Shown here: positions 3,725 through 62,504 of the stretch, one piece after another
Numbering within the stretch: the first letter of the stretch is position 1
Layout of the letters: every line of letters starts with the position of its first letter
Assembly (NCBI GenBank): GCA_015067675.1
Contig: SVMB01000001.1
Coordinates: 65,757-129,756, forward strand
Length of the DNA stretch: 64,000 nt
DNA from: Oscillospiraceae bacterium
Lineage (GTDB): Bacteria; Bacillota; Clostridia; Oscillospirales; QAMX01
Direction of reading: 5' to 3'
Notes under the pieces: generated by a model
Databases searched by the model: none
What the model was told of the DNA's origin: nothing
What the model saw: the letters and a program-made list of their open reading frames with translations, nothing else
Made by a program: the position numbers and the translations under genes

Positions 3725-4615
3725 ATGCGCATTTACTGGTCAAGCTGCCATTTTGTCAATCAGACCGGATTCCTGATCAAGCAGTACAGCGTCAACTGTC
3801 CTACCTATGCACATACCCACGATTTTGCCGAGCTGGTCTATGTCATCCGCGGTCAGGGAAGTCATACCATCGGGGATGCGGAGTATTCGATGGTGCCGGG
3901 CAGCTTTTTCGTGGTCAGGCCCGGGCAGACCCACGGACTGATCTTTGACGAACGGGCGGAATACTATAACATTTTCCTCACGGAGAGCTTCCTGCGGGAT
4001 TTCCGGCTGGATCTGGAGGATATCCCGACGGCGTGGGATCTGCTGTGCCGGGACTGGCCGGCGCCGGTGGTGTATCTGGATGCGGAAAGTGCGGAAACCG
4101 TGGAATGGCTCTGCACACGTATGAACAGCGAATCAGGCTCGCGCAAGCATCGCTCACAGGAGCTGATTTATACCCTTTTTCAGGCAATGCTGCTGGAAGT
4201 GCAGCGCGCAAAGGATGAAAGCCTGGATGCGGCGCGGCTTCATCAGCCGCACATCGCCCTGCCCAAGGTACTTGACTACATCAACGCCCATTTTACCGAG
4301 CCCATCCAGCTCAAAGCGCTCTCGGAAAAGTACAATTACAATCCCGCCTATTTCGGCAGACTCTTCCGCAAACGCTTCGGCGTGACCTTTGATGAATATC
4401 TGCGCAGAAAGCGCATCGAATACGCCCGGGAGCTGCTGGAAAACACGGATTATTCCGTGGAAACCATCATGCATACGGTGGGCTATACCAACAAAAACAA
4501 TTTCTACCGCTTTTTCACCGAGGAATGCGGCTGTACGCCCGGCGAATACCGCAGTGTGCAGAGCTCAAACGATGATACGCTGGCACTCAGCGATACGGCG
4601 GGAGATGCGCCGTGA
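3725..4615 (+). CDS. AraC-family transcriptional regulator (cupin sensor plus C-terminal HTH)
   Basis: 296 aa. N-terminal cupin-like segment (HTHDFAELVYVIRGQGSH) and a C-terminal AraC HTH (YNPAYFGRLFRKRFGVTFDEYLRRKRIEYARELL...GYTNKNNFYRFF). Confidence 0.9.
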   Translation: MRIYWSSCHFVNQTGFLIKQYSVNCPTYAHTHDFAELVYVIRGQGSHTIGDAEYSMVPGSFFVVRPGQTHGLIFDERAEYYNIFLTESFLRDFRLDLEDIPTAWDLLCRDWPAPVVYLDAESAETVEWLCTRMNSESGSRKHRSQELIYTLFQAMLLEVQRAKDESLDAARLHQPHIALPKVLDYINAHFTEPIQLKALSEKYNYNPAYFGRLFRKRFGVTFDEYLRRKRIEYARELLENTDYSVETIMHTVGYTNKNNFYRFFTEECGCTPGEYRSVQSSNDDTLALSDTAGDAP

Positions 4616-12630: not shown

Positions 12631-13260
12631 ATGAGTAATGTAACCGTTATGAACCATCCGCTGATCAGCCATAAGATCAGCATTATCCGTGACATTAACA
12701 CCGGTTGTAAGGAATTCCGCGAGCTCATCGAAGAGATCGCCATGCTCATGGGCTACGAGGCCCTGCGTGATCTGCCTGTGGAAGATGTGCAGATCGAGAC
12801 GCCCATTACCACCACCACCTGCCAGATGCTGGCCGGTAAGAAGCTGGCCATCGTGCCGATCCTGCGTGCAGGTCTGGGCATGGTCAACGGCCTGCTGGCG
12901 CTGGTTCCCTCTGCCAAGGTTGGCCACATCGGTCTCTACCGTGACCACGAGACCCTGGAGCCCCACGAGTATTACTGCAAGCTGCCCGACGATATCGAAA
13001 ACCGTCAGGTCATCCTGCTGGATCCCATGCTTGCCACCGGCGGTTCTGCCAGTGCTGCCATCAATTTCATCAAGCAGCGCGGCTGCAACCACATCAAGCT
13101 CATGAACATCATCGCTGCTCCCGAAGGCGTCGAGCGTATCCAGAAGGATCATCCCGATGTGCCTGTGTTCATCGGCTGCCTGGATGAGAAGCTCAACGAG
13201 AACGGCTACATCGTTCCCGGTCTGGGCGATGCCGGCGACCGTATCTTCGGCACCAAGTAA
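12631..13260 (+). CDS. upp: Uracil phosphoribosyltransferase
   Basis: 209 aa. [22 protein letters not shown], the PRPP loop [13 protein letters not shown] and [17 protein letters not shown] are classic Upp motifs. Confidence 0.95.
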
Positions 13261-19981: not shown

Positions 19982-20857
19982 ATGAGAAAGTGTATGATCT
20001 CCGGCTTTGCCGATGAGGCGAGCAAGGATTTTCTGACGCAGGTTGAAACTGTGAAGAAGCTGGGCATGGAGTATCTGTGCCTGCGTGCTCTTGATGGCCG
20101 CTCCATCGCCGACTATACCGAGGCTGAGGCCGTCAATTACATCAAGCCCAAGCTCGATGAGTATGGCCTGAAGGTTTCGTCCATCGGTTCTCCCATCGGT
20201 AAGGTGCCGGTCAATGATGAGGAAGCCTTTGAAAAGCAGCTGGTGCAGCTGGAAGAGCTGTGTAAGATCGCAAACGTCGTGGGCGCCAGGTACATCCGTC
20301 TCTTCAGCTTCTATATGCCCAAGGATGAGGATCCCGCGCCCTATTTTGATACCGTCGTCGCCAAGATGCGCCGCTTTGTCGAGATCTGCGACCGCTACGG
20401 CGTCATTGCCATGCATGAAAACGAAAAGGGTATCTACGGCGATACCGGCGCACGCTGCCTGGAGCTGTATAAGGCTTTCGAAGGCACCACCATGGCGGCT
20501 GCCTATGACTTTGCAAACTACGTCCAGTGTGACGAGGATCCTGTTGAGTGCTATGAGCTCGTGAAGGATTATATCGCCTACGTGCACGTCAAGGATGCCC
20601 GTAAGTCTGACCACCGCAACGTGCTCTGCGCCACCGGTGACGGCCAGATCCCGAAGATCCTTGCCGACCTCAAGGCTCGCGGCTACGACGGCTTCCTGAC
20701 CATGGAGCCCCATCTGCGTACCTTTGAGAGCCTGAAGAACCTGGAAGCCACCGTCGCCGAGACTCTGGTTCAGGATGCCTACGAAGACGGCGTGTCCGCC
20801 TACACTGCCCAGTATAATGCCCTGTGCGCGGTGCTCGACAGCATCGGCGTCAACTGA
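19982..20857 (+). CDS. Sugar phosphate isomerase/epimerase (xylose-isomerase-like TIM barrel)
   Basis: 291 aa with an AP-endonuclease-2/xylose-isomerase-like pattern (IRLFSFY, AMHENEKG, HVKDA, FLTMEPH). SD AAAGGAGG upstream. Confidence 0.85.
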   Translation: MRKCMISGFADEASKDFLTQVETVKKLGMEYLCLRALDGRSIADYTEAEAVNYIKPKLDEYGLKVSSIGSPIGKVPVNDEEAFEKQLVQLEELCKIANVVGARYIRLFSFYMPKDEDPAPYFDTVVAKMRRFVEICDRYGVIAMHENEKGIYGDTGARCLELYKAFEGTTMAAAYDFANYVQCDEDPVECYELVKDYIAYVHVKDARKSDHRNVLCATGDGQIPKILADLKARGYDGFLTMEPHLRTFESLKNLEATVAETLVQDAYEDGVSAYTAQYNALCAVLDSIGVN

Positions 20858-20876
20858 TAAGAAGGAGAGTATCACC

Positions 20877-22361
20877 ATGGCTGATCGTCATCAGTTCCAG
20901 ACCGTAACGCCCGAAAGCGTCGGCGTGCCTTCTGCGGCCGTCGAGCGCTTCCTCAAGCGCCTGACCGAAACCAAACGCTTCCCCATGCACAGCGTGCTGC
21001 TGCTGCGTGACGGCAAAATCTTCTCCGAAACCTACTGGAAGCCCTTCAACGCCGAGCGCAAGCATCGTATGTACTCTGTTTCCAAGAGCTTTACCTCCGC
21101 TGCCATCGGTATGCTCATCGGCGACGGTAAGATTGCTCTGAATGACCCCATCGTCAAGTATTTCCCCGACATGGCTACCGAGCCCGTCAACCGTTACATG
21201 GCTGATACCACCATCCGCGACCTGCTGATGATGAGCACCTGTAACTACCGCAATGCCTATTCCTTTGAGACCACCGACTGGGCCCGCGACTTTATCGCGT
21301 TCCCCTCCGATCACTGGGGCGGTCATGTGTTCTCTTACGATACCGCTGCCACCACTACGCTGGACGTGCTCATCAAGCGCGTGTCCGGCATGGAGTTGTG
21401 CGACTTCCTGCGTGACCGTCTGTTCCGTCCTGCCGGTATGAGCGAGGATATCTGGTGTGTCCAGACGCCCTGCGGTCATGATTGGGGCGGCTCCGGTATC
21501 CAGGCTACTCCCCGTGACCTGGCGAAGTTTGCCGTGGTCTGCGCCAACGGCGGATCCTATAACGGCCAGCAGCTCATCCCCGAGGATTACATCCGCGCCG
21601 CTACCTCCTGGCAGATCGACAACACCGTGCGCAATTCCACCATGTGCGAACAGCAGGGCTACGGTTACCAGTTCTGGCAGGCGCCCCATAACGGCTGGGC
21701 CATGCTGGGCATGGGCAGCCAGAACGCGCTGGTGTTCCCCGAGCAGCGTCTGATTGTCATCACCACCGCCGATACCCAGGGCTACAGCACCGCCATCGAG
21801 GATATCTACGATGCGATCTTTGATGAGCTGTTCCCGTATCTTGAGAAGTATGATTCCCTGCCTGAAAATGAGGCGGGTTATAAGGAGCTGCTGGCGTACT
21901 CCGAGACCAAGGATATGCCTCTGCTCGTGGGCGAAGCCCACTCCGATATCGAGTCTGCCGTTACCGGCAAGACTTATAAGCTCTCCGAGAACGTGATGGG
22001 CATCGAGAGCGTGAAGTTTGACTTCGAGGGCGAGCAGGTCAAGCTCACCTGGGTCAATGAAAACGGCGTTCAGGAGCTCAACTACGGCCTGTGCTGCTAT
22101 GTTGAGGATACCTTCCCCGAAACCCATTACGAAGCCAGAAAGATCGGCACCCCCGAAAATCGCGGCCTTGAGTGCCACAGCACCGCTGCCTGGGTTGAGC
22201 CTGCTTCTATTCGCCTGACCTGCTATGCCACCGACGTCTGCATGGGTAATCTCCATATGCAGTTCACCTTCGACGGCGATACGGTCACGCTGCTGTGCAC
22301 CAAGAATGCCGAGAATTTCTTCCATAAGTATATCGGCTTTGCTTCCGGTACCTGCGCATAA
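20877..22361 (+). CDS. Beta-lactamase-fold serine hydrolase with a ~150-aa C-terminal beta-rich domain, paralog 1 (most divergent)
   Basis: Start at ATG 20877 after AAGGAGAG. SxxK nucleophile motif in MYSVSKSFTSAAIG, FSYDTAAT (Tyr motif), CGHDWGGSG. No signal peptide. Confidence 0.85.
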   Translation: MADRHQFQTVTPESVGVPSAAVERFLKRLTETKRFPMHSVLLLRDGKIFSETYWKPFNAERKHRMYSVSKSFTSAAIGMLIGDGKIALNDPIVKYFPDMATEPVNRYMADTTIRDLLMMSTCNYRNAYSFETTDWARDFIAFPSDHWGGHVFSYDTAATTTLDVLIKRVSGMELCDFLRDRLFRPAGMSEDIWCVQTPCGHDWGGSGIQATPRDLAKFAVVCANGGSYNGQQLIPEDYIRAATSWQIDNTVRNSTMCEQQGYGYQFWQAPHNGWAMLGMGSQNALVFPEQRLIVITTADTQGYSTAIEDIYDAIFDELFPYLEKYDSLPENEAGYKELLAYSETKDMPLLVGEAHSDIESAVTGKTYKLSENVMGIESVKFDFEGEQVKLTWVNENGVQELNYGLCCYVEDTFPETHYEARKIGTPENRGLECHSTAAWVEPASIRLTCYATDVCMGNLHMQFTFDGDTVTLLCTKNAENFFHKYIGFASGTCA

Positions 22362-22377
22362 GTAGGGAGGACGCTGC

Positions 22378-23883
22378 ATGAGTCGTTTTGAACTGCCGGT
22401 CTCGACGCCGGAAAGCGTTGGCATCCCGTCGGCGGCGATTCAGAGATTCCTGAACCGTCTGGAAGAGAAACGTCTCCCGATGCACAGTGTTCTGATGCAG
22501 CGCGGCGGCAAAATGGTCTTTGAAAACTACTGGAAGCCCTTTGATAAGGATCGTAAGCACCGCATGTACTCCACCAGCAAGAGTTTTACCTCTGCTGCCA
22601 TCGGTATTCTGGCCGGTGAGGGAAAAATCAGCCTTGATGATCCGATGATCAAGTTTTTCCCCGATAAGGTGCCGGAAAATGTGCATCCCTGGATTGCCGA
22701 AACAACCATCCGTCATATGCTGAAGATGACCATGCCCACCAACGGTACCTCCTATAAGTGGTATGATCCGGATTGGGCCGATTCCGTCTTCAACGATAAA
22801 CCTACCCATCGCCCCGGTCAGATTTTCTCCTATAACACCAGTGCGCCCGACATGATGTGCAATATCATCAAGCGTGTCACCGGTCAGGATCTGACCGAGT
22901 ACCTCAGAGACCGCTTCTTTGAGCCTGCGGGCATGAATACCGATATCTGGTGCATTCAGTCTCCCTGCGGCCATGATTGGGGCGGCTCCGGCGTCATGTG
23001 TACGCCCCGCGACCTGATGAAGTTCGCGCTGGTGTTCCTCAATGAAGGTAAGCTCAACGGCAAGCAGATCGTGCCTGCCGATTATGCCCGCGACGCGGTT
23101 TCCAAGCTCGTTGACAACAGCTTCCGGGCCACCAATCCCGAAAAGGCTTTCGGCTACGGCTACCAGTTCTGGCGTCATCGCCACGGCTGGTTTACCTCCG
23201 GCATGGGCAGCCAGCTTGCCATCGCCTTCCCGGAGCAGGATTTCATCTGCGTCACCACCGCCGATACCCAGGGCTATCCCTCCGCTGCGCTCAAAATCAT
23301 TGAGTCGCTCAGCCTGGAGATTCTGCCGTACCTTGAGGCAGGTTCCTCTCTGCCGGAAGATCCCGCGGCCCATCAGGCGCTGCTGGACGCCGTGTCTGAC
23401 CGGGAAATCCTCTGCTGCAAGGGTGAAAAAGAGTCCCCGCTTGCAGCCATGGTCTCCGGCAAGACCTATAAGATGTACGATAATACCATGAATATCTCCT
23501 GGATGCGCTTTACCTTTGAAGGGGATGAAGGCGTCTGGGAATATGAAAACGATACCGGCGTTCACGCCATCCGCTTTGGCTTCGGCCATCAGGTCAGCGG
23601 GGAATTCCCGGATTGTATGGTCAGTAAGGGTAATCCCGAACGCCATTATTTCGGCAAAACCATCGGTACGCCGCCCGATCACGGCTACGATATCTGTACC
23701 AGCGCCGGTTGGGTGGGGGATAAGGGCCTGCTTGTCTGGTGCCATGTAATTGACGACTATTTCGGCTCCCTCAGACTCAACTTCGCATTCGAGGAAAACC
23801 GCGTGACGCTTCTTTCCGTGAAGTGCGCCGAATGGTTCTTCAATGAATACAGCGACGGCTTTGCTTCCGGCATTGCCGAGTAA
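22378..23883 (+). CDS. Beta-lactamase-fold serine hydrolase, paralog 2
   Basis: 501 aa. MYSTSKSFTSAAIG, FSYNTSAP, CGHDWGGSG. Same domain order as its neighbours. No signal peptide. Confidence 0.85.
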   Translation: MSRFELPVSTPESVGIPSAAIQRFLNRLEEKRLPMHSVLMQRGGKMVFENYWKPFDKDRKHRMYSTSKSFTSAAIGILAGEGKISLDDPMIKFFPDKVPENVHPWIAETTIRHMLKMTMPTNGTSYKWYDPDWADSVFNDKPTHRPGQIFSYNTSAPDMMCNIIKRVTGQDLTEYLRDRFFEPAGMNTDIWCIQSPCGHDWGGSGVMCTPRDLMKFALVFLNEGKLNGKQIVPADYARDAVSKLVDNSFRATNPEKAFGYGYQFWRHRHGWFTSGMGSQLAIAFPEQDFICVTTADTQGYPSAALKIIESLSLEILPYLEAGSSLPEDPAAHQALLDAVSDREILCCKGEKESPLAAMVSGKTYKMYDNTMNISWMRFTFEGDEGVWEYENDTGVHAIRFGFGHQVSGEFPDCMVSKGNPERHYFGKTIGTPPDHGYDICTSAGWVGDKGLLVWCHVIDDYFGSLRLNFAFEENRVTLLSVKCAEWFFNEYSDGFASGIAE

Positions 23884-23894
23884 GGAGACAGCAT

Positions 23895-25382
23895 ATGAGT
23901 CGTTATGAATTGCCTGTATGCACGCCCGAAAGTGTGGGCATTCCCTCGTCGGCGGTTCAGAGATTTCTTGAAAAGCTGGAAGAAAAGCGCCTGCCCATGC
24001 ACAGCGTGCTGATGCAGCGGCACGGAAAGATGCTTTTTGAGACTTACTGGAAGCCCTACGATCAGGATCGCAAGCACCGCATGTATTCCACCAGCAAGAG
24101 CTTTGTTTCCACAGCCATCGGTATGCTGGCAGGAGAGGGTAAGCTTTCGCTGGATGATAAGGCTGTCAGCTTTTTCCCGGAGTATATCACCGAGGACCTG
24201 AGTCCCTATACCGCCGAAACCACCGTGCGTGATCTGCTGATGATGGCACAGCCCTTTGCCAGGGATGCCTATGCCTATTCCGATCAGGACCCTGACTGGA
24301 CTCTGCGCTTCTTCCAGACGAAGGCGGATCACAAGCCCGGCAAGCTTTTCCTGTATAATACCCTCTCGACTGTTATGCTCTGCATGATCGTCAAGCGTGT
24401 CTCCGGTGAGGAATTCACCGATTATCTGCGGACGCGTTTCTTTGAGCCCGCCGGCATGAACACCGACATCTGGACCATCAAGTCCCCCTGTGGTCATGAC
24501 TGGGGCGGCTCAGCCCTGCACTGCACCTCCCGCGATCTGATGAAGTTTGCGATGGTGTACATGGGCGAGGGCTTCTTCAACGGCAAGCAGATTGTGCCTG
24601 CCGGGTATGCCCGTGATGCGGTATCACCTCTCATCGATAACTCCATGACCGCTTCCAATCACACGGAGGAGTGGGGATACGGCTATAAGTTCTGGCGCCA
24701 TCAGTACGGCTGGTCCTGCCGCGGTATGGGCAGCCAGCTGGCCATCGCTTTCCCGGCGTATGACTTTATCCTCGTCACCACCGCCGATACCCAGGCACTC
24801 TCCGGCGGCGACCGGATCATTTTCGAGTCGGCCTATGAAGAGCTGCTGCCGTATCTGCAGAAAGACGCCGCTCTGCCCGAGGATGCGGAAGCTGCTGCAG
24901 CACTGCAGGCTTATACCGGGAAAGTCTGCCGCGAGCTCATCTGCACTGAGGGTGAAAAAACCTCATCCTTTGCCGATGCCGTCAATGGCAGAACCTACCG
25001 GATGGATGAAAATAAAATGCAGCTGAAGTGGATGCGTTTCCGCTTTGAAGGCGACGAAGGTGTCTGGGAGTATGAAAATGCCACCGGCGTTCACGCTATT
25101 CGCTTCGGCCTCGGCCATCAGGTGGAGGGTGTATTCCCCGAAACCCATTATTACGGCAAAAAGATCGGCGAACCTCTGGGACGGGGTTATGAAATCCATA
25201 CCAGCGCCGGTTGGATCAGAGATGATAATCTGAAGCTGACCGTTTATGCCACAGATTACTTTATCGGAACCCTGCGCATCAATTTTGCCTTCGATGGCGA
25301 TACCGTTACGGCCTACGCCACCAAGAACGCGGAGTGGTTCTTCCAGGAATATCAGGGCTTTGCCACAGGCACAGCCCAATAA
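23895..25382 (+). CDS. Beta-lactamase-fold serine hydrolase, paralog 3
   Basis: 495 aa. MYSTSKSFVSTAIG, FLYNTLST, CGHDWGGSA. SD AAGGAGA upstream. Confidence 0.85.
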   Translation: MSRYELPVCTPESVGIPSSAVQRFLEKLEEKRLPMHSVLMQRHGKMLFETYWKPYDQDRKHRMYSTSKSFVSTAIGMLAGEGKLSLDDKAVSFFPEYITEDLSPYTAETTVRDLLMMAQPFARDAYAYSDQDPDWTLRFFQTKADHKPGKLFLYNTLSTVMLCMIVKRVSGEEFTDYLRTRFFEPAGMNTDIWTIKSPCGHDWGGSALHCTSRDLMKFAMVYMGEGFFNGKQIVPAGYARDAVSPLIDNSMTASNHTEEWGYGYKFWRHQYGWSCRGMGSQLAIAFPAYDFILVTTADTQALSGGDRIIFESAYEELLPYLQKDAALPEDAEAAAALQAYTGKVCRELICTEGEKTSSFADAVNGRTYRMDENKMQLKWMRFRFEGDEGVWEYENATGVHAIRFGLGHQVEGVFPETHYYGKKIGEPLGRGYEIHTSAGWIRDDNLKLTVYATDYFIGTLRINFAFDGDTVTAYATKNAEWFFQEYQGFATGTAQ

Positions 25383-25394
25383 GGAGATAATTAC

Positions 25395-26882
25395 ATGAGT
25401 CGTTATGAATTGCCCGTTGCAACTCCCGAAAGTGTGGGCATTCCGTCGGCTGCGATTCAGAAATTTCTGAACAGGCTCGAGGAAAAGCGCCTGCCCATGC
25501 ACAGCATTCTGATGCTGCGCCATGGCAAACTCGTTTTTGAAACCTATTGGAAGCCCTTTGATAAGGATCGCAAGCACCGCATGTATTCCACCAGCAAGAG
25601 CTTTGTCTCCGCTGCGATTGGTATCCTTGCCGGTGAGGGTAAGATCAGCCTGGACGACACCGTCGCCAGCTTCTTCCCCGATCTTGCGCCCAAGAATATG
25701 CATCCCTACGTTGCCTGCGCCACCATCCGCGATATGCTCATGATGGCAACCCCCTTCCTTTACGGTCACTGCACCTATAGCGATCAGTGCCAGGATTGGG
25801 CCAAGTCCTTCTTCGATGCCGAGCCCTCCCATCTGCCCGGCAAGATCTTTTCCTACGATACCACCGCCACCGTCATGCTCAGCATCATCATCAAGCGTGT
25901 CACCGGCGTGGAGTTCACCGAGTACCTGCGTGACCGTTTCTTCGAGCCCGCCGGTATGAACACCGATATCTGGTGTGTCGAGACTCCCTGCGGCCATGAG
26001 TGGGGCGGCTCCGGCGTGGAATGCACCCCCCGCGACCTGATGAAGTTTGCACTGGTGTTCTTAAACGGCGGTAAGCTCAACGGTAAGCAGATTGTCCCCG
26101 AGGATTATGCCCGCGCTGCCGTTTCCCGCCAGATCGACAACAGCTTCACTGCCGGCTCCGCCGAGCATACCTTTGGCTACGGCTACCAGTTCTGGCGTCA
26201 TCGCTACGGCTGGTCCTGCCGCGGTATGGGCAGCCAGTTGGCCATTGCCTTCCCGGATCAGGACTTCATCTGCATCACTACCGGCGATACCCAGGCGGTT
26301 CCCGCCGGCTGCGGCAACATCTATGATGCCCTGTATGCCGAGATTCTGCCTTGCCTGAACGAAAACGAGAGCCTACCCGAGGATCCCGCAGGCCATCAGG
26401 CGCTGCTGGATGCCACTGCCGATCAGGAACTGCTCTGCTGCGTCGGCAAGCATGAGTCTCCTCTGGCTGGTATTGTCTCTGGTAAGACCTATCGCATGGA
26501 TCCCAATGGCAAAAAGCCTCTCAAGTGGGTCCGCTTCAACTTCGAGGGCGATGAAGGCACGATGGAATACGAAAACGAAACCGGCGTTCATGCCATCCGT
26601 TTCGGCTTCGGCCATCAGGTCAAGGGCGTGTTCCCCGAGACGCATTACTACGGCAAGCGCATCGGTACTCCCGCAGGCCGTGGCTATGAGTGCCATGCCA
26701 GCGCCGGCTGGGTAGGCGAGCAGGGGCTGCTCATCTACATCTACGCCACCGATGACTATCTGGGAACGATCAAGATGAACTTTGCATTCGTGGATGACCG
26801 CATCACTCTGCAGTCCTTCACCAACGCTGAGTGGTTCTTCAGAGAGTATAACGATATCATCTGCGCCGGTGTTGCCGAATAA
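25395..26882 (+). CDS. Beta-lactamase-fold serine hydrolase, paralog 4
   Basis: 495 aa. MYSTSKSFVSAAIG, FSYDTTAT, CGHEWGGSG. SD AAGGAGA upstream. Confidence 0.85.
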   Translation: MSRYELPVATPESVGIPSAAIQKFLNRLEEKRLPMHSILMLRHGKLVFETYWKPFDKDRKHRMYSTSKSFVSAAIGILAGEGKISLDDTVASFFPDLAPKNMHPYVACATIRDMLMMATPFLYGHCTYSDQCQDWAKSFFDAEPSHLPGKIFSYDTTATVMLSIIIKRVTGVEFTEYLRDRFFEPAGMNTDIWCVETPCGHEWGGSGVECTPRDLMKFALVFLNGGKLNGKQIVPEDYARAAVSRQIDNSFTAGSAEHTFGYGYQFWRHRYGWSCRGMGSQLAIAFPDQDFICITTGDTQAVPAGCGNIYDALYAEILPCLNENESLPEDPAGHQALLDATADQELLCCVGKHESPLAGIVSGKTYRMDPNGKKPLKWVRFNFEGDEGTMEYENETGVHAIRFGFGHQVKGVFPETHYYGKRIGTPAGRGYECHASAGWVGEQGLLIYIYATDDYLGTIKMNFAFVDDRITLQSFTNAEWFFREYNDIICAGVAE

Positions 26883-34591: not shown

Positions 34592-36811
34592 ATGGAAAGC
34601 GTATTCCTGCAGATACTGAACATGAGCATCACCGGCTCCTACGTGATTCTTGCCGTGCTGCTCATCCGCCTGCTGCTGCGCCGGGCACCGCGCAGATTCA
34701 ACTTCCTTTTGTGGGCGGTTCCCGCATTCCGCCTGATCTGCCCGGTCAGTTTTGAATCCTTTTTCTCGCTCTTTTCCCTTCCGGGCTTTGATATGACCCG
34801 CGCCCAGAGCGTGACACCCACCCGGATGGCGTACATCCCTGAGAATATCGGCATGATGGCAAAGCCCGAGATCACCGTGGGCATTCCCGCCGCCAATGCC
34901 TTTATTTCAAGCTCTCTCCCGGCGGCAACACCCATGTACAGCGCCAATCCCATGCAGATCTGGACAGCCGTCGGCTCCATTTTGTGGCTCGCAGGCGTTG
35001 TAGTCCTGCTTCTCTGGGCGATTGTGAGCGTATTGGTTCTGCGGCATCGCATGAAAAAGGCTACGCGGCAGGAAAAAGGCGTCTGGGCTTGCGAAAACGT
35101 CCGCTCTCCCTTTATTCTGGGTATCTTTCGTCCACGGATTTACATTCCCTACGGCCTGTCGGAGGATGCGCTGCATTACGTGCTTGCCCACGAACGCTGC
35201 CACATCCGTCGGCTTGACCACATCATACGCCCGGTGAGCTTTCTTGTCCTGACGCTGCACTGGTTCAATCCCCTCGTCTGGCTTGGCTACATCCTGATGG
35301 GGCGGGATATGGAAATGAGCTGCGATGAGCGGGTTCTGGCCATGGAAGAGGATGTCCGCGCAGACTACAGCCGGACGCTGCTCACCCTTGCCGCCAGCCG
35401 CCGCTTTCTCACCCTCAATCCCCTGGCCTTCGGGGAAACCGGCGTACGGCAGCGCATCAGGAACATCCTCAGCTGGAAGAAACCCGCGGTCTGGATCACG
35501 GTGACAGCAGTTGTGGTGTGCCTGGTTGTGATATTTGCCTGTGCTGCCAATCCCCAGCAGCGCATCGACCGGGAAAAGCTCCGGCTCGGCGCGTGGGAGA
35601 CCGGTCTCATCCTCTCGGAAGAGGCCGTGGACGCCCTCACAGAGCTCATCAACTCCCACCGGCGCACGCCGTACCGGGATACCGGTATCGACGACATCAC
35701 GGACGGGAGTGAGACGAAAATTGTGCTCTACGGAACGGCGGGCGATGTGTACACCGTCGAGTACCGCTACACCAGCGGCTTTTCCTTTGATCCGCGCCAC
35801 TTCGGCGAGGACGATTACCGGACGCTCCTGCACTACAAGAATAATGACCTCGGCATAAAGAAATGCTGGACGATGGAGTTCGACTTTGATGAGAAGTTCA
35901 TCGACTGGCTCAAAACCCACACGCACTATGGAAGCATCCCTGCGGAGGATACACCTCCGTCTGCGGGAGATTTTTACTCGTCATATGTCCCATACGCCTG
36001 CCTGTATATGAATTCTCTGAGCTCCTTTGCACCCTTCGGTGGAGACTCGGGCTACCGATACTATTGGATAGATGACAGCTTCGTTATCGAGCCGCGCAAC
36101 CGTTTTTATGCCGCCGAGGTGATCCCGGCGGAACGCAATGAATGGCAGGAGTTTCCCTACACCGACGAGGAATGGAACGCGCTGTTTGAGCCTGCGATGG
36201 GCAGCATTCTTGCCGATATCAACAGCCGCTGCGACCAAATTTATTATCATCCTTTGAACGGTACACATTTCCTCATGGACGTAATCCACCCTGACGACCA
36301 TCAGCTCTGGCTGGTGGAAATGAAAGAAAATCCCCAGATGGGACGCTATATCTGGAGCATCTACAGCCTTGCCTCCGAATACGCCATGGGGCGTGCAAGC
36401 TGGAACTATCAGCCGTATTACAGTTCAAAGCCCAACGAGTTCCGCTTCGTCTTTGAAAAGAACATTTCCGATCTCTCGCTTTTTACAGACGGCGGCAAGG
36501 CACGCTTTGAAACCACCGCCGACGGTCAGACGATCCTTTACTGGTCACCTATTGCCGCCGACAGTGTGGCAAATCCCCTGTTTGCGCAGGCCGGTATCAT
36601 CCGTTTCTCTTATACGGATGAAAAGGGCAGATTGGGCAATGGCACAATCTACATCGACTGTACAAAAAGCTCCGGCTACGACAAATCCACCTATCCCATC
36701 TCCTATTACACCGCCACCATCGTCGGCACCAACCTCCATCTCAAACAGGATAAAGAATACGGCGGTGGTATCATCACCGATCCCCCATGGAACACCAGCG
36801 ATCCGTCGTAA
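34592..36811 (+). CDS. BlaR1/MecR1-like M56 peptidase sensor with a non-PBP extracellular domain
   Basis: 739 aa. N-terminal TM segments, HExxH zinc motif (LAHERCHIRRLDH), a further TM, then a ~430-aa C-terminal domain with no SxxK/KTG penicillin-binding motifs. Confidence 0.85.
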   Translation: MESVFLQILNMSITGSYVILAVLLIRLLLRRAPRRFNFLLWAVPAFRLICPVSFESFFSLFSLPGFDMTRAQSVTPTRMAYIPENIGMMAKPEITVGIPAANAFISSSLPAATPMYSANPMQIWTAVGSILWLAGVVVLLLWAIVSVLVLRHRMKKATRQEKGVWACENVRSPFILGIFRPRIYIPYGLSEDALHYVLAHERCHIRRLDHIIRPVSFLVLTLHWFNPLVWLGYILMGRDMEMSCDERVLAMEEDVRADYSRTLLTLAASRRFLTLNPLAFGETGVRQRIRNILSWKKPAVWITVTAVVVCLVVIFACAANPQQRIDREKLRLGAWETGLILSEEAVDALTELINSHRRTPYRDTGIDDITDGSETKIVLYGTAGDVYTVEYRYTSGFSFDPRHFGEDDYRTLLHYKNNDLGIKKCWTMEFDFDEKFIDWLKTHTHYGSIPAEDTPPSAGDFYSSYVPYACLYMNSLSSFAPFGGDSGYRYYWIDDSFVIEPRNRFYAAEVIPAERNEWQEFPYTDEEWNALFEPAMGSILADINSRCDQIYYHPLNGTHFLMDVIHPDDHQLWLVEMKENPQMGRYIWSIYSLASEYAMGRASWNYQPYYSSKPNEFRFVFEKNISDLSLFTDGGKARFETTADGQTILYWSPIAADSVANPLFAQAGIIRFSYTDEKGRLGNGTIYIDCTKSSGYDKSTYPISYYTATIVGTNLHLKQDKEYGGGIITDPPWNTSDPS

Positions 36812-36821
36812 AATACAGGAA

Positions 36822-36854
36822 AACAGCCCCGTGACCTGGCGTCACGGGGCTGTT
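36822..36854. terminator. Bidirectional hairpin terminator
   Basis: AACAGCCCCGTGAC-5 nt-GTCACGGGGCTGTT, a perfect 14-bp stem between convergent genes. Confidence 0.7.
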
Positions 36855-41302: not shown

Positions 41303-42079
41303 ATGAAACTGGGTTTCTGTACGAGCATTGATAATCTGGAACTGGTCGAAAAGGCCGGTATTGATTACATGGAAAGCAGCGTCGGCGCAGTCGCAGGCTG
41401 GACCGACGAGGAGACGAAGGAAAACCTGAAGAAGCTGGCCAACTCTCCGGTCAAATTTGAGTCCTGTAACAGCCTCATCGGCGGCTTCTCGCTGTATGAA
41501 GATGCTGACTGGTCCAAGACCGACGCGTATTTTGCCCGCGTGCTGCCCAGACTTGCCGAGGTCGGCATGAAGACGCTGGTATTCGGCAGCGGCGGCTACC
41601 GCAGAATCATCGACGGCGTGACCCCGGAAGCGGCGCACGAGCGCATCCTGCAGTTCCTTGATCGCCTTTCCGGCAAGATCAAGCCCTACGGTATCACCAT
41701 CGTCATCGAGCCCCTCAATACCAATGAGTGCAACATCTTGACCTCATCCAAGGAGGCCGAGGGCTATGTGCGTGAGCTGAACCTGCCCAACATCCAGCTG
41801 CTGGTGGACTACTACCACTTCCTGCTGGAGTCCGAGCGTCTGACCGTGATCGACGACTATAAGGGCATCCTCAAGCACACCCATATCGCCAATCCCGTCA
41901 AGCGTTTCACCCCCGCGCCCTTCGACGGTGTGGACTATGTGGGCTGGTTCAGAGCGCTGAAAAAGATCGGCTACGACGGTCTGATTGTGGCCGAACCCAG
42001 ACGTCCCGACGATCTGTTTGCCGCGATGCAGGGCTACAAGGCTGCCATGGATATGGCGATGGCCGAAGCCGGTGTCTGA
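41303..42079 (+). CDS. Xylose-isomerase-like TIM-barrel protein, paralog B
   Basis: Start at ATG 41303 after GGAGGAAA. MKLGFCTSI..., LVFGSGGYRR, VIEPL, KHTHIANP. Confidence 0.8.
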   Translation: MKLGFCTSIDNLELVEKAGIDYMESSVGAVAGWTDEETKENLKKLANSPVKFESCNSLIGGFSLYEDADWSKTDAYFARVLPRLAEVGMKTLVFGSGGYRRIIDGVTPEAAHERILQFLDRLSGKIKPYGITIVIEPLNTNECNILTSSKEAEGYVRELNLPNIQLLVDYYHFLLESERLTVIDDYKGILKHTHIANPVKRFTPAPFDGVDYVGWFRALKKIGYDGLIVAEPRRPDDLFAAMQGYKAAMDMAMAEAGV

Positions 42080-42099: not shown

Positions 42100-42134
42100 A
42101 AAGTGCCGATGCAGTTCATGCATCGGCACTTTTT
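42100..42134 (+). terminator. Intrinsic terminator
   Basis: AAGTGCCGATGCA-GTTC-TGCATCGGCACTT followed by TTTT. Confidence 0.8.
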
Positions 42135-60340: not shown

Positions 60341-61306
60341 ATGAAACTGGGCGTTATGACTCCCGTCCTGTACGATATGGACTTTGCCTCCGCCGTTCGT
60401 TACCTGCACTCTCTGGGTGTGCAGACGGTGGAAGTGGGCGCCGGCGGCTGCCCCGGGAAGACCCATCTGGATCCCGACAAGCTCCTGGGCGACGATGCTG
60501 CCATCCAGGCCATCATCGACGTTCTCAAGGAGAACGACATGACCATCTGCGCGCTGTCCTGCCATGACAACGCCGTGCATCCCAACAAGGAATATGCCGC
60601 GCGCTCCCATGCGGACTTTGAAAAGACCGTGCTGCTGGCCGAGAAGCTGGGCGTAACCACCGTCATCACCTTCTCCGGCTGCCCCGGTGACAGCGAAAAC
60701 TCCCTGTATCCCAACTGGGTCACCTGCGCCTGGCCCCCGGATTATCTGACCATCCTTGACTACCAGTGGAACGAGGTTCTCATTCCTTACTGGAAGAAGG
60801 CTGCCGCTTTTGCCGAAGCCCATGGCATCAAGAAGATCGCCCTGGAGCTGCATCCCGGCTTCTGCTGCTACAATCCCGAGACGCTGCTGCGTCTGCGTGA
60901 GGCCGTTGGCCCCATCATCGGCGCAAACCTCGACCCGTCTCATCTCTTCTGGCAGGGAATTGATATTCCCACCGCCATCCGCAAGCTGGGCCCCGCCATC
61001 CATCACTTCCATGCCAAGGATACCAAGATCGATCCCGCCAATGCTTCCGCAGACGGCGTGCTGGATACCAAGCACTACGATCAGGAGCTCAAGCGTTCCT
61101 GGATCTTCCGTACCGTGGGCTACGGCCACGATGCGCAAACCTGGAAGGACATCATCTCCAACCTCCGTATGGTCGGTTACGACGGCCCCATCTCCATTGA
61201 GCATGAAGATAGCCTCATGAGCCCCAGAGAGGGTCTTTGCAAGGCCATCGAGTTCCTCAAGGAAGTCCTGATCTTCGAGAGCAAGGGCGAAATGTGGTGG
61301 GCATAA
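60341..61306 (+). CDS. Sugar phosphate isomerase/epimerase (xylose-isomerase-like TIM barrel)
   Basis: 321 aa. ALELHPG, HFHAKD, ISIEHED metal-ligand blocks. Confidence 0.85.
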   Translation: MKLGVMTPVLYDMDFASAVRYLHSLGVQTVEVGAGGCPGKTHLDPDKLLGDDAAIQAIIDVLKENDMTICALSCHDNAVHPNKEYAARSHADFEKTVLLAEKLGVTTVITFSGCPGDSENSLYPNWVTCAWPPDYLTILDYQWNEVLIPYWKKAAAFAEAHGIKKIALELHPGFCCYNPETLLRLREAVGPIIGANLDPSHLFWQGIDIPTAIRKLGPAIHHFHAKDTKIDPANASADGVLDTKHYDQELKRSWIFRTVGYGHDAQTWKDIISNLRMVGYDGPISIEHEDSLMSPREGLCKAIEFLKEVLIFESKGEMWWA

Positions 61307-61310
61307 TGTT

Positions 61311-61441
61311 CCATGACAACTATGTTGTCATGGAGTGAAATTGCGCAGGCTTTGCCTGCGCAGTGAAATCCATCCGAAGGATGGGTGAAATCGGAGCTTT
61401 GCTCCGGTGAGATTTACCGCACATTGCGGCAAGTGATAAAT
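61311..61441 (+). repeat. Array of five triloop hairpins separated by conserved GTGAAAT-type linkers
   Basis: H1 61311-61333 (10 bp, loop TAT), linker aGTGAAAT. H2 61342-61362 (9 bp, loop TTT), linker GTGAAAT. H3 61370-61384 (6 bp, loop GAA), linker GTGAAAT. H4 61392-61406 (6 bp, loop TTT), linker GTGAGAT. H5 61414-61432 (7 of 8 bp, loop CAT), linker GTGATAAAT. The SD AGGAG of the next gene follows. Confidence 0.6.
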
Positions 61442-61459
61442 AGGATAGGAGTTACGAAT

Positions 61460-62230
61460 ATGAAGAAAGTTTCTCTGCAGATGTATTCCATCCGTGAGCT
61501 GATGGCCAAGGACGTGGCCTCCACCCTGATGGAAACCGCCAAGGCCGGTTATACCGGTGTTGAATTTGCCGGTTTCTTTAACCATACCGCCGAGGAGATC
61601 AAGTCTTATCTGGACGCTGCCGGTCTTGTCTGCTCCGGTACCCATACCGGTCTGCCCGCTCTGCAGCCCGATACCATCGGCGAGACCATCGAGTATCATC
61701 ATAAGATCGGTGCCTCCAACCTCGTTGTTCCCGGTATCCCCGGTGAGATGTACGGCAGCTACGATGCCGCCTGCAAGACCGGTGCCCTGCTCAACGACAT
61801 CGGTGCCCAGCTGAAGGCTGAGGGCATCACCCTTGGTTATCATAACCATCACCGTGAGTTCCAGGTCTTCAACGGCCAGTATGCCCTTGACCTGATGTAC
61901 GGCAACGCCGATCCTGAGAACCTGAAGGTTGAGCTGGACTGCTACTGGGCCCATGTCGCCGGTGTCGACGTGGTCGAGTATGTCCGCAAGTACGGCAAGC
62001 GCAACTTCCTGCTGCACATGAAGGACCGCAAGCCCAACGACGCCGATAAGATCGCCCAGGGCATCTACGAGTGCACCGAGGTTGGTTCCGGTGTTGTGGA
62101 CTTCAAGTCCGTCATCGCCCTTGCCAAGGAATTTGGTACCCAGTGGTACGTCGTCGAGCAGGAGAGCTTTGATATGCCCATGCTCGAGAGCATTGCCAAG
62201 AGCGCCAAGTGGCTCAATGAAAACACCTGA
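61460..62230 (+). CDS. Sugar phosphate isomerase/epimerase (xylose-isomerase-like TIM barrel)
   Basis: Start at ATG 61460 after TAGGAG (MKKVSLQMYSIRE...). GYHNHHREF, LLHMKD, YVVEQE blocks. Confidence 0.85.
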   Translation: MKKVSLQMYSIRELMAKDVASTLMETAKAGYTGVEFAGFFNHTAEEIKSYLDAAGLVCSGTHTGLPALQPDTIGETIEYHHKIGASNLVVPGIPGEMYGSYDAACKTGALLNDIGAQLKAEGITLGYHNHHREFQVFNGQYALDLMYGNADPENLKVELDCYWAHVAGVDVVEYVRKYGKRNFLLHMKDRKPNDADKIAQGIYECTEVGSGVVDFKSVIALAKEFGTQWYVVEQESFDMPMLESIAKSAKWLNENT

Positions 62231-62281
62231 TTAGCCTGACAGAAGGGTACGCCGTAATGGCGGATGTTCATAAAACAGCTG

Positions 62282-62312
62282 CAGTCCCGGTTGCTCTGCC
62301 GGGACTGTTTTT
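62282..62312 (+). terminator. Intrinsic terminator
   Basis: CAGTCCCGG-8 nt-CCGGGACTG followed by TTTTT. Confidence 0.7.
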
Positions 62313-62504
62313 ATATATTTGACAACGATGCGATGGAATAGAAGAACCCGTTGGATCAACTGAAAGCCTCGACACGCCGGGATGGATTTGTCTGAATGGA
62401 AACGCAAAAGCCTTGCTGTCAGACAAGCCTGACAGCATCCTGCATACAATGACAGGCACGCGCGCTACATTTGCGGTATAATACCTACGAAGGGGATGAA
62501 TTTC

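Follow-up and report, generated by a model that had tools for sequence, protein, structure and literature searches.

A 64-kb stretch of genomic DNA from an Oscillospiraceae bacterium (hereafter the window, to whose positions all coordinates refer unless a locus name precedes them) includes a sugar-metabolism operon in which two adjacent cistrons are separated by a gap of 153 nt, and this gap carries a tandem array of five short hairpins joined by linkers of the GTGAAAT type. The operon encodes, in this order, a flavin reductase, a GFO/IDH/MocA oxidoreductase, a GDSL hydrolase and two xylose-isomerase-like TIM-barrel proteins, the array being placed between the last two. It starts 3 nt past the upstream stop codon (TAA, 61304–61306) and ends 5–14 nt before the Shine-Dalgarno (SD) sequence and 18 nt before the start codon (ATG, 61460) of the downstream cistron. 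The gap length and codon positions given in the original prediction, which was made from the letters of the window alone, agree with the sequence. The features of the junction are as follows:

60341–61306, + strand: upstream cistron, xylose-isomerase-like TIM-barrel protein of 321 aa (list of open reading frames, ORFs; Pfam PF01261, E = 5e-34)
61310–61334, + strand: hairpin unit 1, CCATGACAAC-TAT-GTTGTCATGG at 61311–61333 plus the pair T61310-A61334, 11-bp stem (sequence, perfect-hairpin scan; dG -16.1 kcal/mol)
61335–61341, + strand: linker 1, GTGAAAT, whose GT and AT ends lengthen the adjacent stems and leave GAA single-stranded
61342–61362, + strand: hairpin unit 2, TGCGCAGGC-TTT-GCCTGCGCA, 9-bp stem (sequence, hairpin scan; dG -18.3 kcal/mol)
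61363–61369, + strand: linker 2, GTGAAAT (sequence)
61370–61384, + strand: hairpin unit 3, CCATCC-GAA-GGATGG, 6-bp stem (sequence, hairpin scan; dG -9.2 kcal/mol)
61385–61391, + strand: linker 3, GTGAAAT (sequence)
61392–61406, + strand: hairpin unit 4, CGGAGC-TTT-GCTCCG, 6-bp stem (sequence, hairpin scan; dG -10.6 kcal/mol)
61407–61413, + strand: linker 4, variant GTGAGAT (sequence)
61414–61432, + strand: hairpin unit 5, TTACCGCA-CAT-TGCGGCAA, 8-bp stem with one A x C mismatch (sequence, folding; dG -6.5 kcal/mol)
61433–61441, + strand: terminal degenerate linker, GTGATAAAT (sequence)
61447–61451, + strand: SD sequence AGGAG of the downstream cistron, 8 nt 5' of the ATG, unpaired with the array (sequence, folding)
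61460–62230, + strand: downstream cistron, xylose-isomerase-like TIM-barrel protein of 256 aa (Pfam PF01261, E = 2.7e-19; orthologues found)
62281–62318, + strand: intrinsic-terminator-like hairpin and T-tract, end of the operon

Three of the five linkers are exact copies of GTGAAAT and two are variants (GTGAGAT and GTGATAAAT), and the units, which measure 15–25 nt, have no stem sequence in common. The RNA of the + strand folds into exactly five independent hairpins (-68 kcal/mol, z = -6.7, 0/200 shuffles as good), and the - strand folds with equal regularity (z = -8.9, likewise 0/200). The AU and GU ends of the linkers extend the stems and only GAA is predicted to stay single-stranded, with P(unpaired) of 0.94–0.99. 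A scan for perfect hairpins (stems of at least 6 bp, loops of 3–6 nt) found no adjacent hairpins elsewhere in the window. The heptamer GTGAAAT is not enriched there (7 occurrences versus 7.7 expected), and three of the seven lie inside the array. The five hairpins with 3-nt loops and GTGAAAT-type linkers that had been described between two TIM-barrel genes are thus confirmed by sequence and by folding, far beyond chance; the A x C mismatch of hairpin 5 had not been mentioned.

Neither promoter-like nor terminator-like sites were found in 61307–61459 and, as an operon terminator lies at 62281–62318, the array should be internal to a polycistronic transcript. Its assignment as an intrinsic (Rho-independent) terminator was rejected on the lack of a terminator-like site in that interval; the earlier view of a real structured element that has no U-tract and is not a terminator was right. 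The role of translational gate that had been suggested for the last linker was not supported, since the SD sequence is not paired with the array in the fold, and sequestration of this site was rejected accordingly. Also discarded were a clustered regularly interspaced short palindromic repeat (CRISPR) array, as the window has a 7-nt repeat and palindromic 'spacers' of 15–23 nt, and an attC site, on its anatomy.

The gap is 100% identical on five independent metagenome contigs, found via exact matches of the downstream protein, and the array is therefore not an assembly artefact; an exact-sequence look-up of the upstream protein gave no record. In the mechanical ORF list the downstream gene starts further upstream, at an in-frame GTG in linker 3 (61385–62230, 281 aa), an artefact in view of the SD sequence and ATG at 61447–61462 and of the orthologues, which are all of 256 aa.

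A scan of the window against Rfam at the default gathering thresholds returned no match. In E-value mode, the only one in which a match was seen, the stretch 61361–61444 (+ strand), which comprises units 3–5 and their linkers, aligned to the full Gut-1 model (RF01706; cmscan 47.8 bits, model positions 1–77 of 77, E = 8e-9). With E = 2.6e-6 for the 64-kb window, this is the sole Rfam match with E < 0.05 there, no covariance model of riboswitch, T-box, RAT, ANTAR or leader families reaching that value, and neither the hairpin scan nor the Rfam E-value scan revealed a second Gut-1 copy in the window. The score lies 2.2 bits under the Gut-1 gathering cut-off of 50 bits, so that the copy is not a member by that threshold, which is operational and not a biological defining feature of the family. 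The shortfall is accounted for by hairpin 5, which is mismatched and 9 nt longer than in the model, and by the degeneracy of the last two linkers. Units 1–2 are extra copies that fall outside the three-hairpin model.

The consensus of Gut-1 is hairpin-GUGAAAU-hairpin-GUGAAAU-hairpin, with A-U and U.G closing pairs. Common to the family and the window array are the tandem short hairpins (at least three), the GUGAAAU linkers, the AU...GU extension that closes the stems and the GAA between helices, as well as an origin in uncultured gut Clostridia-type organisms. Stem sequences differ between members while pairing is retained, and loci that were found through the window's own architecture proved to be family members. 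The differences are the number of hairpins (five in the window, three in the model), the position of the window copy between two cistrons of an operon as opposed to the stand-alone small RNA (sRNA) of the Rfam typing, and the range, limited to the human gut in 2010 and extended here to named Clostridia and Akkermansia metagenome-assembled genomes (MAGs) and phage-like contigs. The array is a five-unit member of an already catalogued orphan family and not a new class. The original prediction had recognised no known class, which holds for all other Rfam families at E < 0.05 and fails for Gut-1; a significant Rfam match was one of two outcomes that it had named as speaking against it.

Gut-1 was described from 43 representatives, all of them human gut environmental sequences, and was rated as certainly an RNA, probably not cis-regulatory, and typed as an sRNA (Weinberg et al., 2010, Genome Biol 11:R31). 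The seed alignment of that study already has GUGAUAU-linker variants and downstream inverted arrays. The Rfam type of the family is 'Gene; sRNA'. A search of the available literature for Gut-1 found no paper after Weinberg 2010 that mentions the family, and a search on GTGAAAT hairpin repeats retrieved unrelated papers only. The window copy is intra-operonic, without a promoter or terminator of its own, and thus not a stand-alone sRNA gene, which questions the typing of Gut-1 and not the membership of the window copy.

The distribution of the family was surveyed with two sequence patterns. Public metagenome contigs were scanned for GTGAAAT-N13-27-GTGAAAT-N13-27-GTGAAAT; most matches were ordinary tandem repeats, but in about 15 loci the exact linkers were separated by unrelated perfect palindromes, and 10 of the 14 such loci tested scored 58–85 bits for Gut-1. 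A pattern of the hairpin-2 type (GTGAAAT-TGCGC-N3-13-GCGCA-GTGAAAT, one genome per species) gave 30 loci in named MAGs: seven in Christensenellaceae bacterium Phil1, eight in Ca. Faecivivens stercoravium and the remainder in Ca. Scatosoma, Oscillospiraceae, Ruminococcus sp. and Eubacteriales MAGs, with three in Akkermansia sp. MAGs. By Rfam, 19 of these 30 loci hold a total of 23 Gut-1 hits above gathering (five within one 8-kb locus), and several phage-like contigs of IMG/VR carry Gut-1-type arrays as well. The arrays of named MAGs sit between a stop codon and the gene's terminator. Those of Phil1 follow unrelated genes and are laid out as a stop codon, a first hairpin, a mosaic of 3–5 types, a conserved tail and, usually, an intrinsic terminator; their hairpin types (CCTGC, TGCGC, ATTGC, ATGGC and CCGCC) have hypervariable loops, and some units are present or absent.

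A custom covariance model was dropped because the MAFFT alignment of arrays was mis-registered, unit number and length being variable, and a unit detector was used together with Rfam. It yielded 56 non-redundant arrays and 134 distinct units, in which most loops are of 3 nt (72 units) or 4 nt (49) and stems of 4–9 bp. The claim that stem sequence is free and pairing kept was borne out, as 758 of the 776 stem pairs are Watson-Crick; among the 18 mismatches there is 1 T.G versus 6 A.C/C.A, and G.T is not enriched. Loops are polar, with UUC (22), UGC (14), UUU (10) and UUAC (9) rather than their complements. In 22/56 arrays a long sense-strand ORF stops no more than 80 nt upstream of the first linker, and in only 4/56 does a convergent antisense ORF stop within 80 nt downstream, from which the usual position is the start of the 3' untranslated region (3'UTR), on the coding strand. 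Both orientations are seen, and convergent (+)/(-) composites are common.

Gut-1 is hence a modular repeat made of short perfect hairpins of free sequence (4–11 bp stems, 3–4 nt loops) joined by the 7-mer GUGAAAU, and it is dispersed and multi-copy in genomes of uncultured gut Clostridia. The window array is one copy of this repeat, the second outcome named beforehand as adverse to the original prediction. The hairpin types of the window array recur, across about 2 Mb of fetched loci, only in an orthologous locus (L006, see below), and its stems are unrelated to those at the other fetched loci.

Several arrays show additional features. In composite elements (L149 330–1020; L146 2270–2450; L128 2281–2470; L112 minus strand 12700–12905; L291 1050–1500) the (+) array starts with AAATAAATCC(C)-loop-(G)GGATTT and has GGATTTATTT at its end, so that its two ends could pair over 10 bp in a long-range helix that encloses the entire array and competes with the local first hairpin; a stretch of 700 nt in L149 holds three of these composites in tandem. 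Instead of a linker, the final hairpin of many arrays precedes GTTGYGG, a conserved 3' end motif (L028 2757–2790; L141 1175–1200; L142 4040–4060; L059 minus strand ~6580; Weinberg seed sequences) that is missing from the window copy, which ends in GTGATAAAT. Genuine arrays with longer loops are found on contigs binned as Akkermansia sp. (GC 0.58–0.60; L144 4850–5350, L160 4300–4600, L162 5500–5800), those of L144 being two tandem four-hairpin copies (51.1 bits for Gut-1); they represent either cross-phylum spread or mis-binning. A phage-like contig of 4.5 kb (L243, IMG/VR, JGI sample 3300031555, the same sample as L001) has an array in nearly every intergenic gap between 100 and 4487, with sense GTGAAAT/GTGATAT arrays directly past stops and antisense ATATCAC arrays directly before the next start. 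Finally, three MAG species have apparently orthologous arrays (L142/L143 ~3950–4027 and L155 3018–3093) whose middle hairpin is TCGCCC...GGGCGA in the former and TTGCC...GGCAA in the latter, a paired change (C-G to T-A, one pair lost) that is an example of in-situ compensatory change.

The history of the window array can be followed in relatives of the operon. In L006 the operon is conserved, the downstream protein is 81% identical and the same gap carries an array of four units. Identity at 4-fold degenerate sites of the flanking genes is 72–74%; between linker 1 and linker 3 inclusive, all 49 of 49 stem and linker positions are identical and 6 of 8 loop positions differ, as anticipated by the claim that structure and linkers are kept. 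Unit 1 is replaced in L006 by an unrelated hairpin, unit 2 has an identical stem and a different loop, and unit 3 has the same stem with the loop GAA versus TTC, its exact reverse complement; unit 4 and its linker (22 nt) are cleanly absent, and unit 5 has a different mismatch. This gain, loss or swap of whole units in relatives contradicts the tandem duplication with compensatory change that had been offered as an origin.

Orthologues at 64–68% identity have neither array nor GTGAAAT in their gaps of 20–74 nt, and at most one unrelated hairpin. A lineage-specific arrival is deduced from the presence of the array in L006 and its absence from these distant orthologues, which also indicates that it is not an ancestral regulator of the TIM-barrel genes. 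After arrival, to judge from the alignment with L006, stems and linkers would have been maintained (or homogenised) while the array was remodelled unit by unit. Among the distant gaps, that of L018 (2940–3000) has a single unrelated hairpin with an 11-bp stem, ACGCGCCCGGG-TTATGAT-CCCGGGCGCGT, and that of L017 (1804–1877) also a single unrelated one; hairpins between these two cistrons may thus be tolerated or favoured whether or not they belong to Gut-1.

The explanation favoured here, held with slightly better than even confidence, is that the window array is a five-unit Gut-1 copy comparable to the repetitive extragenic palindromes (REPs) and bacterial interspersed mosaic elements (BIMEs), co-transcribed with the operon and acting as a passive hairpin barrier or insulator. 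It builds on the observed family identity, dispersal, modular gain and loss of units, in-situ conservation of stems and linkers and position within one transcription unit. The stem-loops of REPs figure as stable structures in the decay of mRNA (PMC2777011), and REPs and REPINs are dispersed extragenic palindromes that form hairpins in single-stranded DNA (ssDNA) or mRNA (PMC3116915). The array would be a largely selfish palindromic repeat that spreads and persists for its own reasons. Once transcribed with the operon it would fold into five independent hairpins, a row of stable structures that may passively hinder 3'->5' exonucleases and insulate one cistron from the other; the effect would be a shift in the relative stability or expression of upstream versus downstream segments, without sensing any signal. 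The invariant linker would most likely be the recognition site of a factor that spreads or binds the repeat. Since hairpin 1 lies close to the stop codon, stop-proximal ribosome stalling may be a further possibility; in Escherichia coli, REPs near stop codons reportedly stall ribosomes.

A number of points weigh against this explanation. Co-transcription and any effect on mRNA decay are what we infer, the Gut-1 score is about 2 bits below the Rfam gathering threshold, and the 64-kb window has only one copy. Near-perfect Watson-Crick stems without wobble enrichment, on a small number of mismatches (18), would be unlike typical selected RNA helices and fit a DNA-level palindrome, and the existence of arrays in both orientations and of convergent pairs implies that RNA polarity is not strictly required. 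The strong in-situ conservation of stems and linkers could denote a function more specific than that of a passive barrier. REP stems are conserved, with an imperfect palindrome of ~35 nt per family, whereas Gut-1 stems are free and the 7-nt linker is fixed; moreover, a RAYT/IS200-like transposase partner was not found beside Gut-1, no systematic Y1 search having been made.

Some of these features are shared with a reading that is regarded as possible, although rather unlikely, namely that the array is a DNA-level element without an RNA role. In single-stranded or supercoiled DNA its palindromes would form extruded hairpins or cruciforms, and these, together with GTGAAAT, would be recognised by a replication factor, a recombinase or an HUH-type transposase; the intercistronic copy would be inert cargo. 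The perfect Watson-Crick stems without wobble enrichment, the two orientations with their convergent (+)/(-) composites, the inverted unit-3 loop of L006 (GAA->TTC, as is typical when hairpins mediate template switching), the whole-unit indels at the 7-bp linker microhomology and the vicinity of composite arrays to tRNA/transfer-messenger RNA (tmRNA) integration sites and serine-recombinase islands are consistent with it, and the REPIN/RAYT system provides a precedent (PMC3116915). However, no transposase or recombinase is consistently placed beside the arrays and no HUH/RAYT-type gene turned up (no systematic search was made); the strong sense-strand bias directly past stop codons (22 versus 4), the polar loop composition (UUC, UGC and UUU, not their complements) and the conservation of resident stems and linkers beyond the neutral rate, which argues for selection, speak against it. 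The idea preferred in the original prediction, a multi-site platform for an RNA-binding protein, is judged unlikely; each hairpin with its single-stranded GAA/GUGAAAU would be one putative site, and the bound protein would control stability or translation of the flanking cistrons. It would explain why the 7-mer is invariant between otherwise free hairpins, why GAA is predicted to be fully exposed and why loops are polar and U-rich, and a candidate exists in the Avd-like four-helix-bundle protein PF05635, of a small nucleic-acid-binding-type family, which is encoded beside composite arrays. Nevertheless, this gene was not found in the window, the SD sequence is not occluded, and arrays follow unrelated genes, so that any regulation would be generic and not specific to TIM-barrel genes. 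A processing or stability module, likewise proposed in the original prediction, is also possible.

That the array is a small non-coding RNA gene in its own right, the type given to Gut-1 by Rfam ('Gene; sRNA') and in line with its listing in Weinberg 2010 (non-coding RNA, not cis-regulatory), is very improbable: the window array is squeezed between a stop and the next start without promoter- or terminator-like sites of its own, the copies in named MAGs lie between a stop codon and the gene's terminator, sense-after-stop positions dominate (22 versus 4) and arrays differ in hairpin number, between 2 and 6. The regular spacing alone favours a fortuitous grouping of palindromes, or a tandem duplication in situ that diverged by compensatory mutation, and this reading is refuted by the fold statistics (z of -6.7 and -8.9), the uniqueness of the arrangement in the window, the Rfam match (E = 2.6e-6), the same architecture at dozens of unrelated loci and the units themselves, which differ in length (15–25 nt) and have no stem in common.

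A side lead concerns the PF05635/TIGR02436 four-helix-bundle gene, the sole recurrent neighbour of the arrays to be found, which adjoins composite Gut-1 arrays in 8/8 loci found by tblastn or viral scan and in 10/10 loci inspected among the 20 fetched through two close homologues (L292–L311); none is encoded in the window. The family is annotated as '23S rRNA intervening-sequence protein' and resembles Avd of diversity-generating retroelements (PMC10053308). The subfamily numbers 7982 proteins at E <= 1e-15 in gut metagenomes, and many of the loci may be orthologous to one another. The gene together with a convergent Gut-1(+)/(-) composite is found at the following positions:

L292 2240–2848; L302 2156–2848; L044 654–1216; L112 12828–13292
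L128 1878–2361; L266 4–700; L291 1050–1854; L157 1–800

In most loci (L292–L311, L044, L291) the composite immediately precedes the gene and shares its strand, in a module that usually reads tmRNA or tRNA-Pro, terminator, Gut-1(+), Gut-1(-), promoter and four-helix-bundle gene. An identical module follows two different tmRNA genes, one locus has only a 17-nt tmRNA 3' remnant, and MazG and a serine recombinase with variable cargo come next in the tRNA-Pro version, which places the module on the border of integrative elements. Inverted arrays stand on either side of the gene in L157. That the PF05635 protein is a partner of Gut-1 is possible, as a lead and not a finding. A broader proposal, put forward tentatively and thought to be improbable, is that Gut-1 arrays are not sRNAs but a REPIN-like, self-propagating hairpin-array repeat with a PF05635/TIGR02436 partner: the convergent composites upstream of the four-helix-bundle gene at tRNA/tmRNA sites would be 'master' modules, solo arrays their dispersed offspring, and the protein would bind hairpin-GUGAAAU units as RNA or ssDNA. 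If true, this pairing would give both orphan families their first function.

Elsewhere in the window there are two perfect hairpins with 14-bp stems and 5-nt loops, at 36822–36854, just past a BlaR1-like gene (34592–36811), and at 42100–42132, just past an ORF ending at 42079 and before recJ (42240); both are probably terminators. Adjacent same-strand ORFs of ~500 aa occupy 20775–26882, and the two tested (20775–22361 and 23895–25382) belong to the beta-lactamase family PF00144; upstream of the operon in the distant orthologues L012 and L016 there is likewise a gene of the beta-lactamase family. The RelA protein of the window organism, an uncultured Clostridia MAG, shows 100% identity to an NCBI MAG protein, 71% to one of 'Eubacteriales bacterium' and about 56% to that of Pseudoflavonifractor.

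With regard to annotation, the window array should be recorded as a Gut-1-type repeat and not as a new riboregulator. The copy is sub-threshold, unusually long and intercistronic, while the instance itself is ordinary for the family, and it illustrates how arrays that are longer or degenerate escape the Rfam threshold. Gut-1, in Rfam since 2010 as an sRNA of the human gut only, appears to be mis-typed. If confirmed, these results would re-type it as a Gram-positive analogue of REP/BIME elements and suggest partners that can be tested, along with effects on operon stoichiometry and on the decay of mRNA.

Among known systems, REP, BIME and REPIN elements share with Gut-1 the nature of short extragenic palindromes, multi-copy, dispersed and transcribed in 3'UTRs or intercistronic gaps, the single, tandem or inverted-pair arrangement and a short conserved motif beside the hairpin, and they have known RNA-level side effects on mRNA decay. 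The Gut-1 family is repetitive, extragenic, palindromic and multi-copy in the sense of REP-type elements, the window genome having one copy in 64 kb. Gut-1 hairpins are much shorter, and REP/BIME/REPIN elements occur in another phylum, the Proteobacteria. The neisserial intergenic mosaic elements (NIMEs, in which dRS3 repeats flank variable modules) and pneumococcal BOX are likewise mosaics of a short constant sequence between interchangeable modules whose number varies by locus; their constant unit is of ~20 bp or more, their modules of 50–150 bp are not individually palindromic, and sequences and taxa are unrelated. CRISPR arrays also alternate a short constant sequence with variable parts and differ in unit number between close relatives. 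In Gut-1, however, the constant part has 7 nt versus 23–50, the variable parts are perfect palindromes of 11–25 nt, arrays comprise 2–6 units, and no cas genes or leader were seen with the array. Intercistronic stem-loops that set mRNA stability, such as those of Rhodobacter puf, the E. coli malE-malF REP and Clostridium cellulosome operons, are similarly stable, lack a U-tract, lie between cistrons of one operon and are expected to protect upstream RNA from 3' exonucleases; these are locus-specific single or double hairpins, whereas the Gut-1 array is a copy of a genome-wide repeat with a fixed linker.

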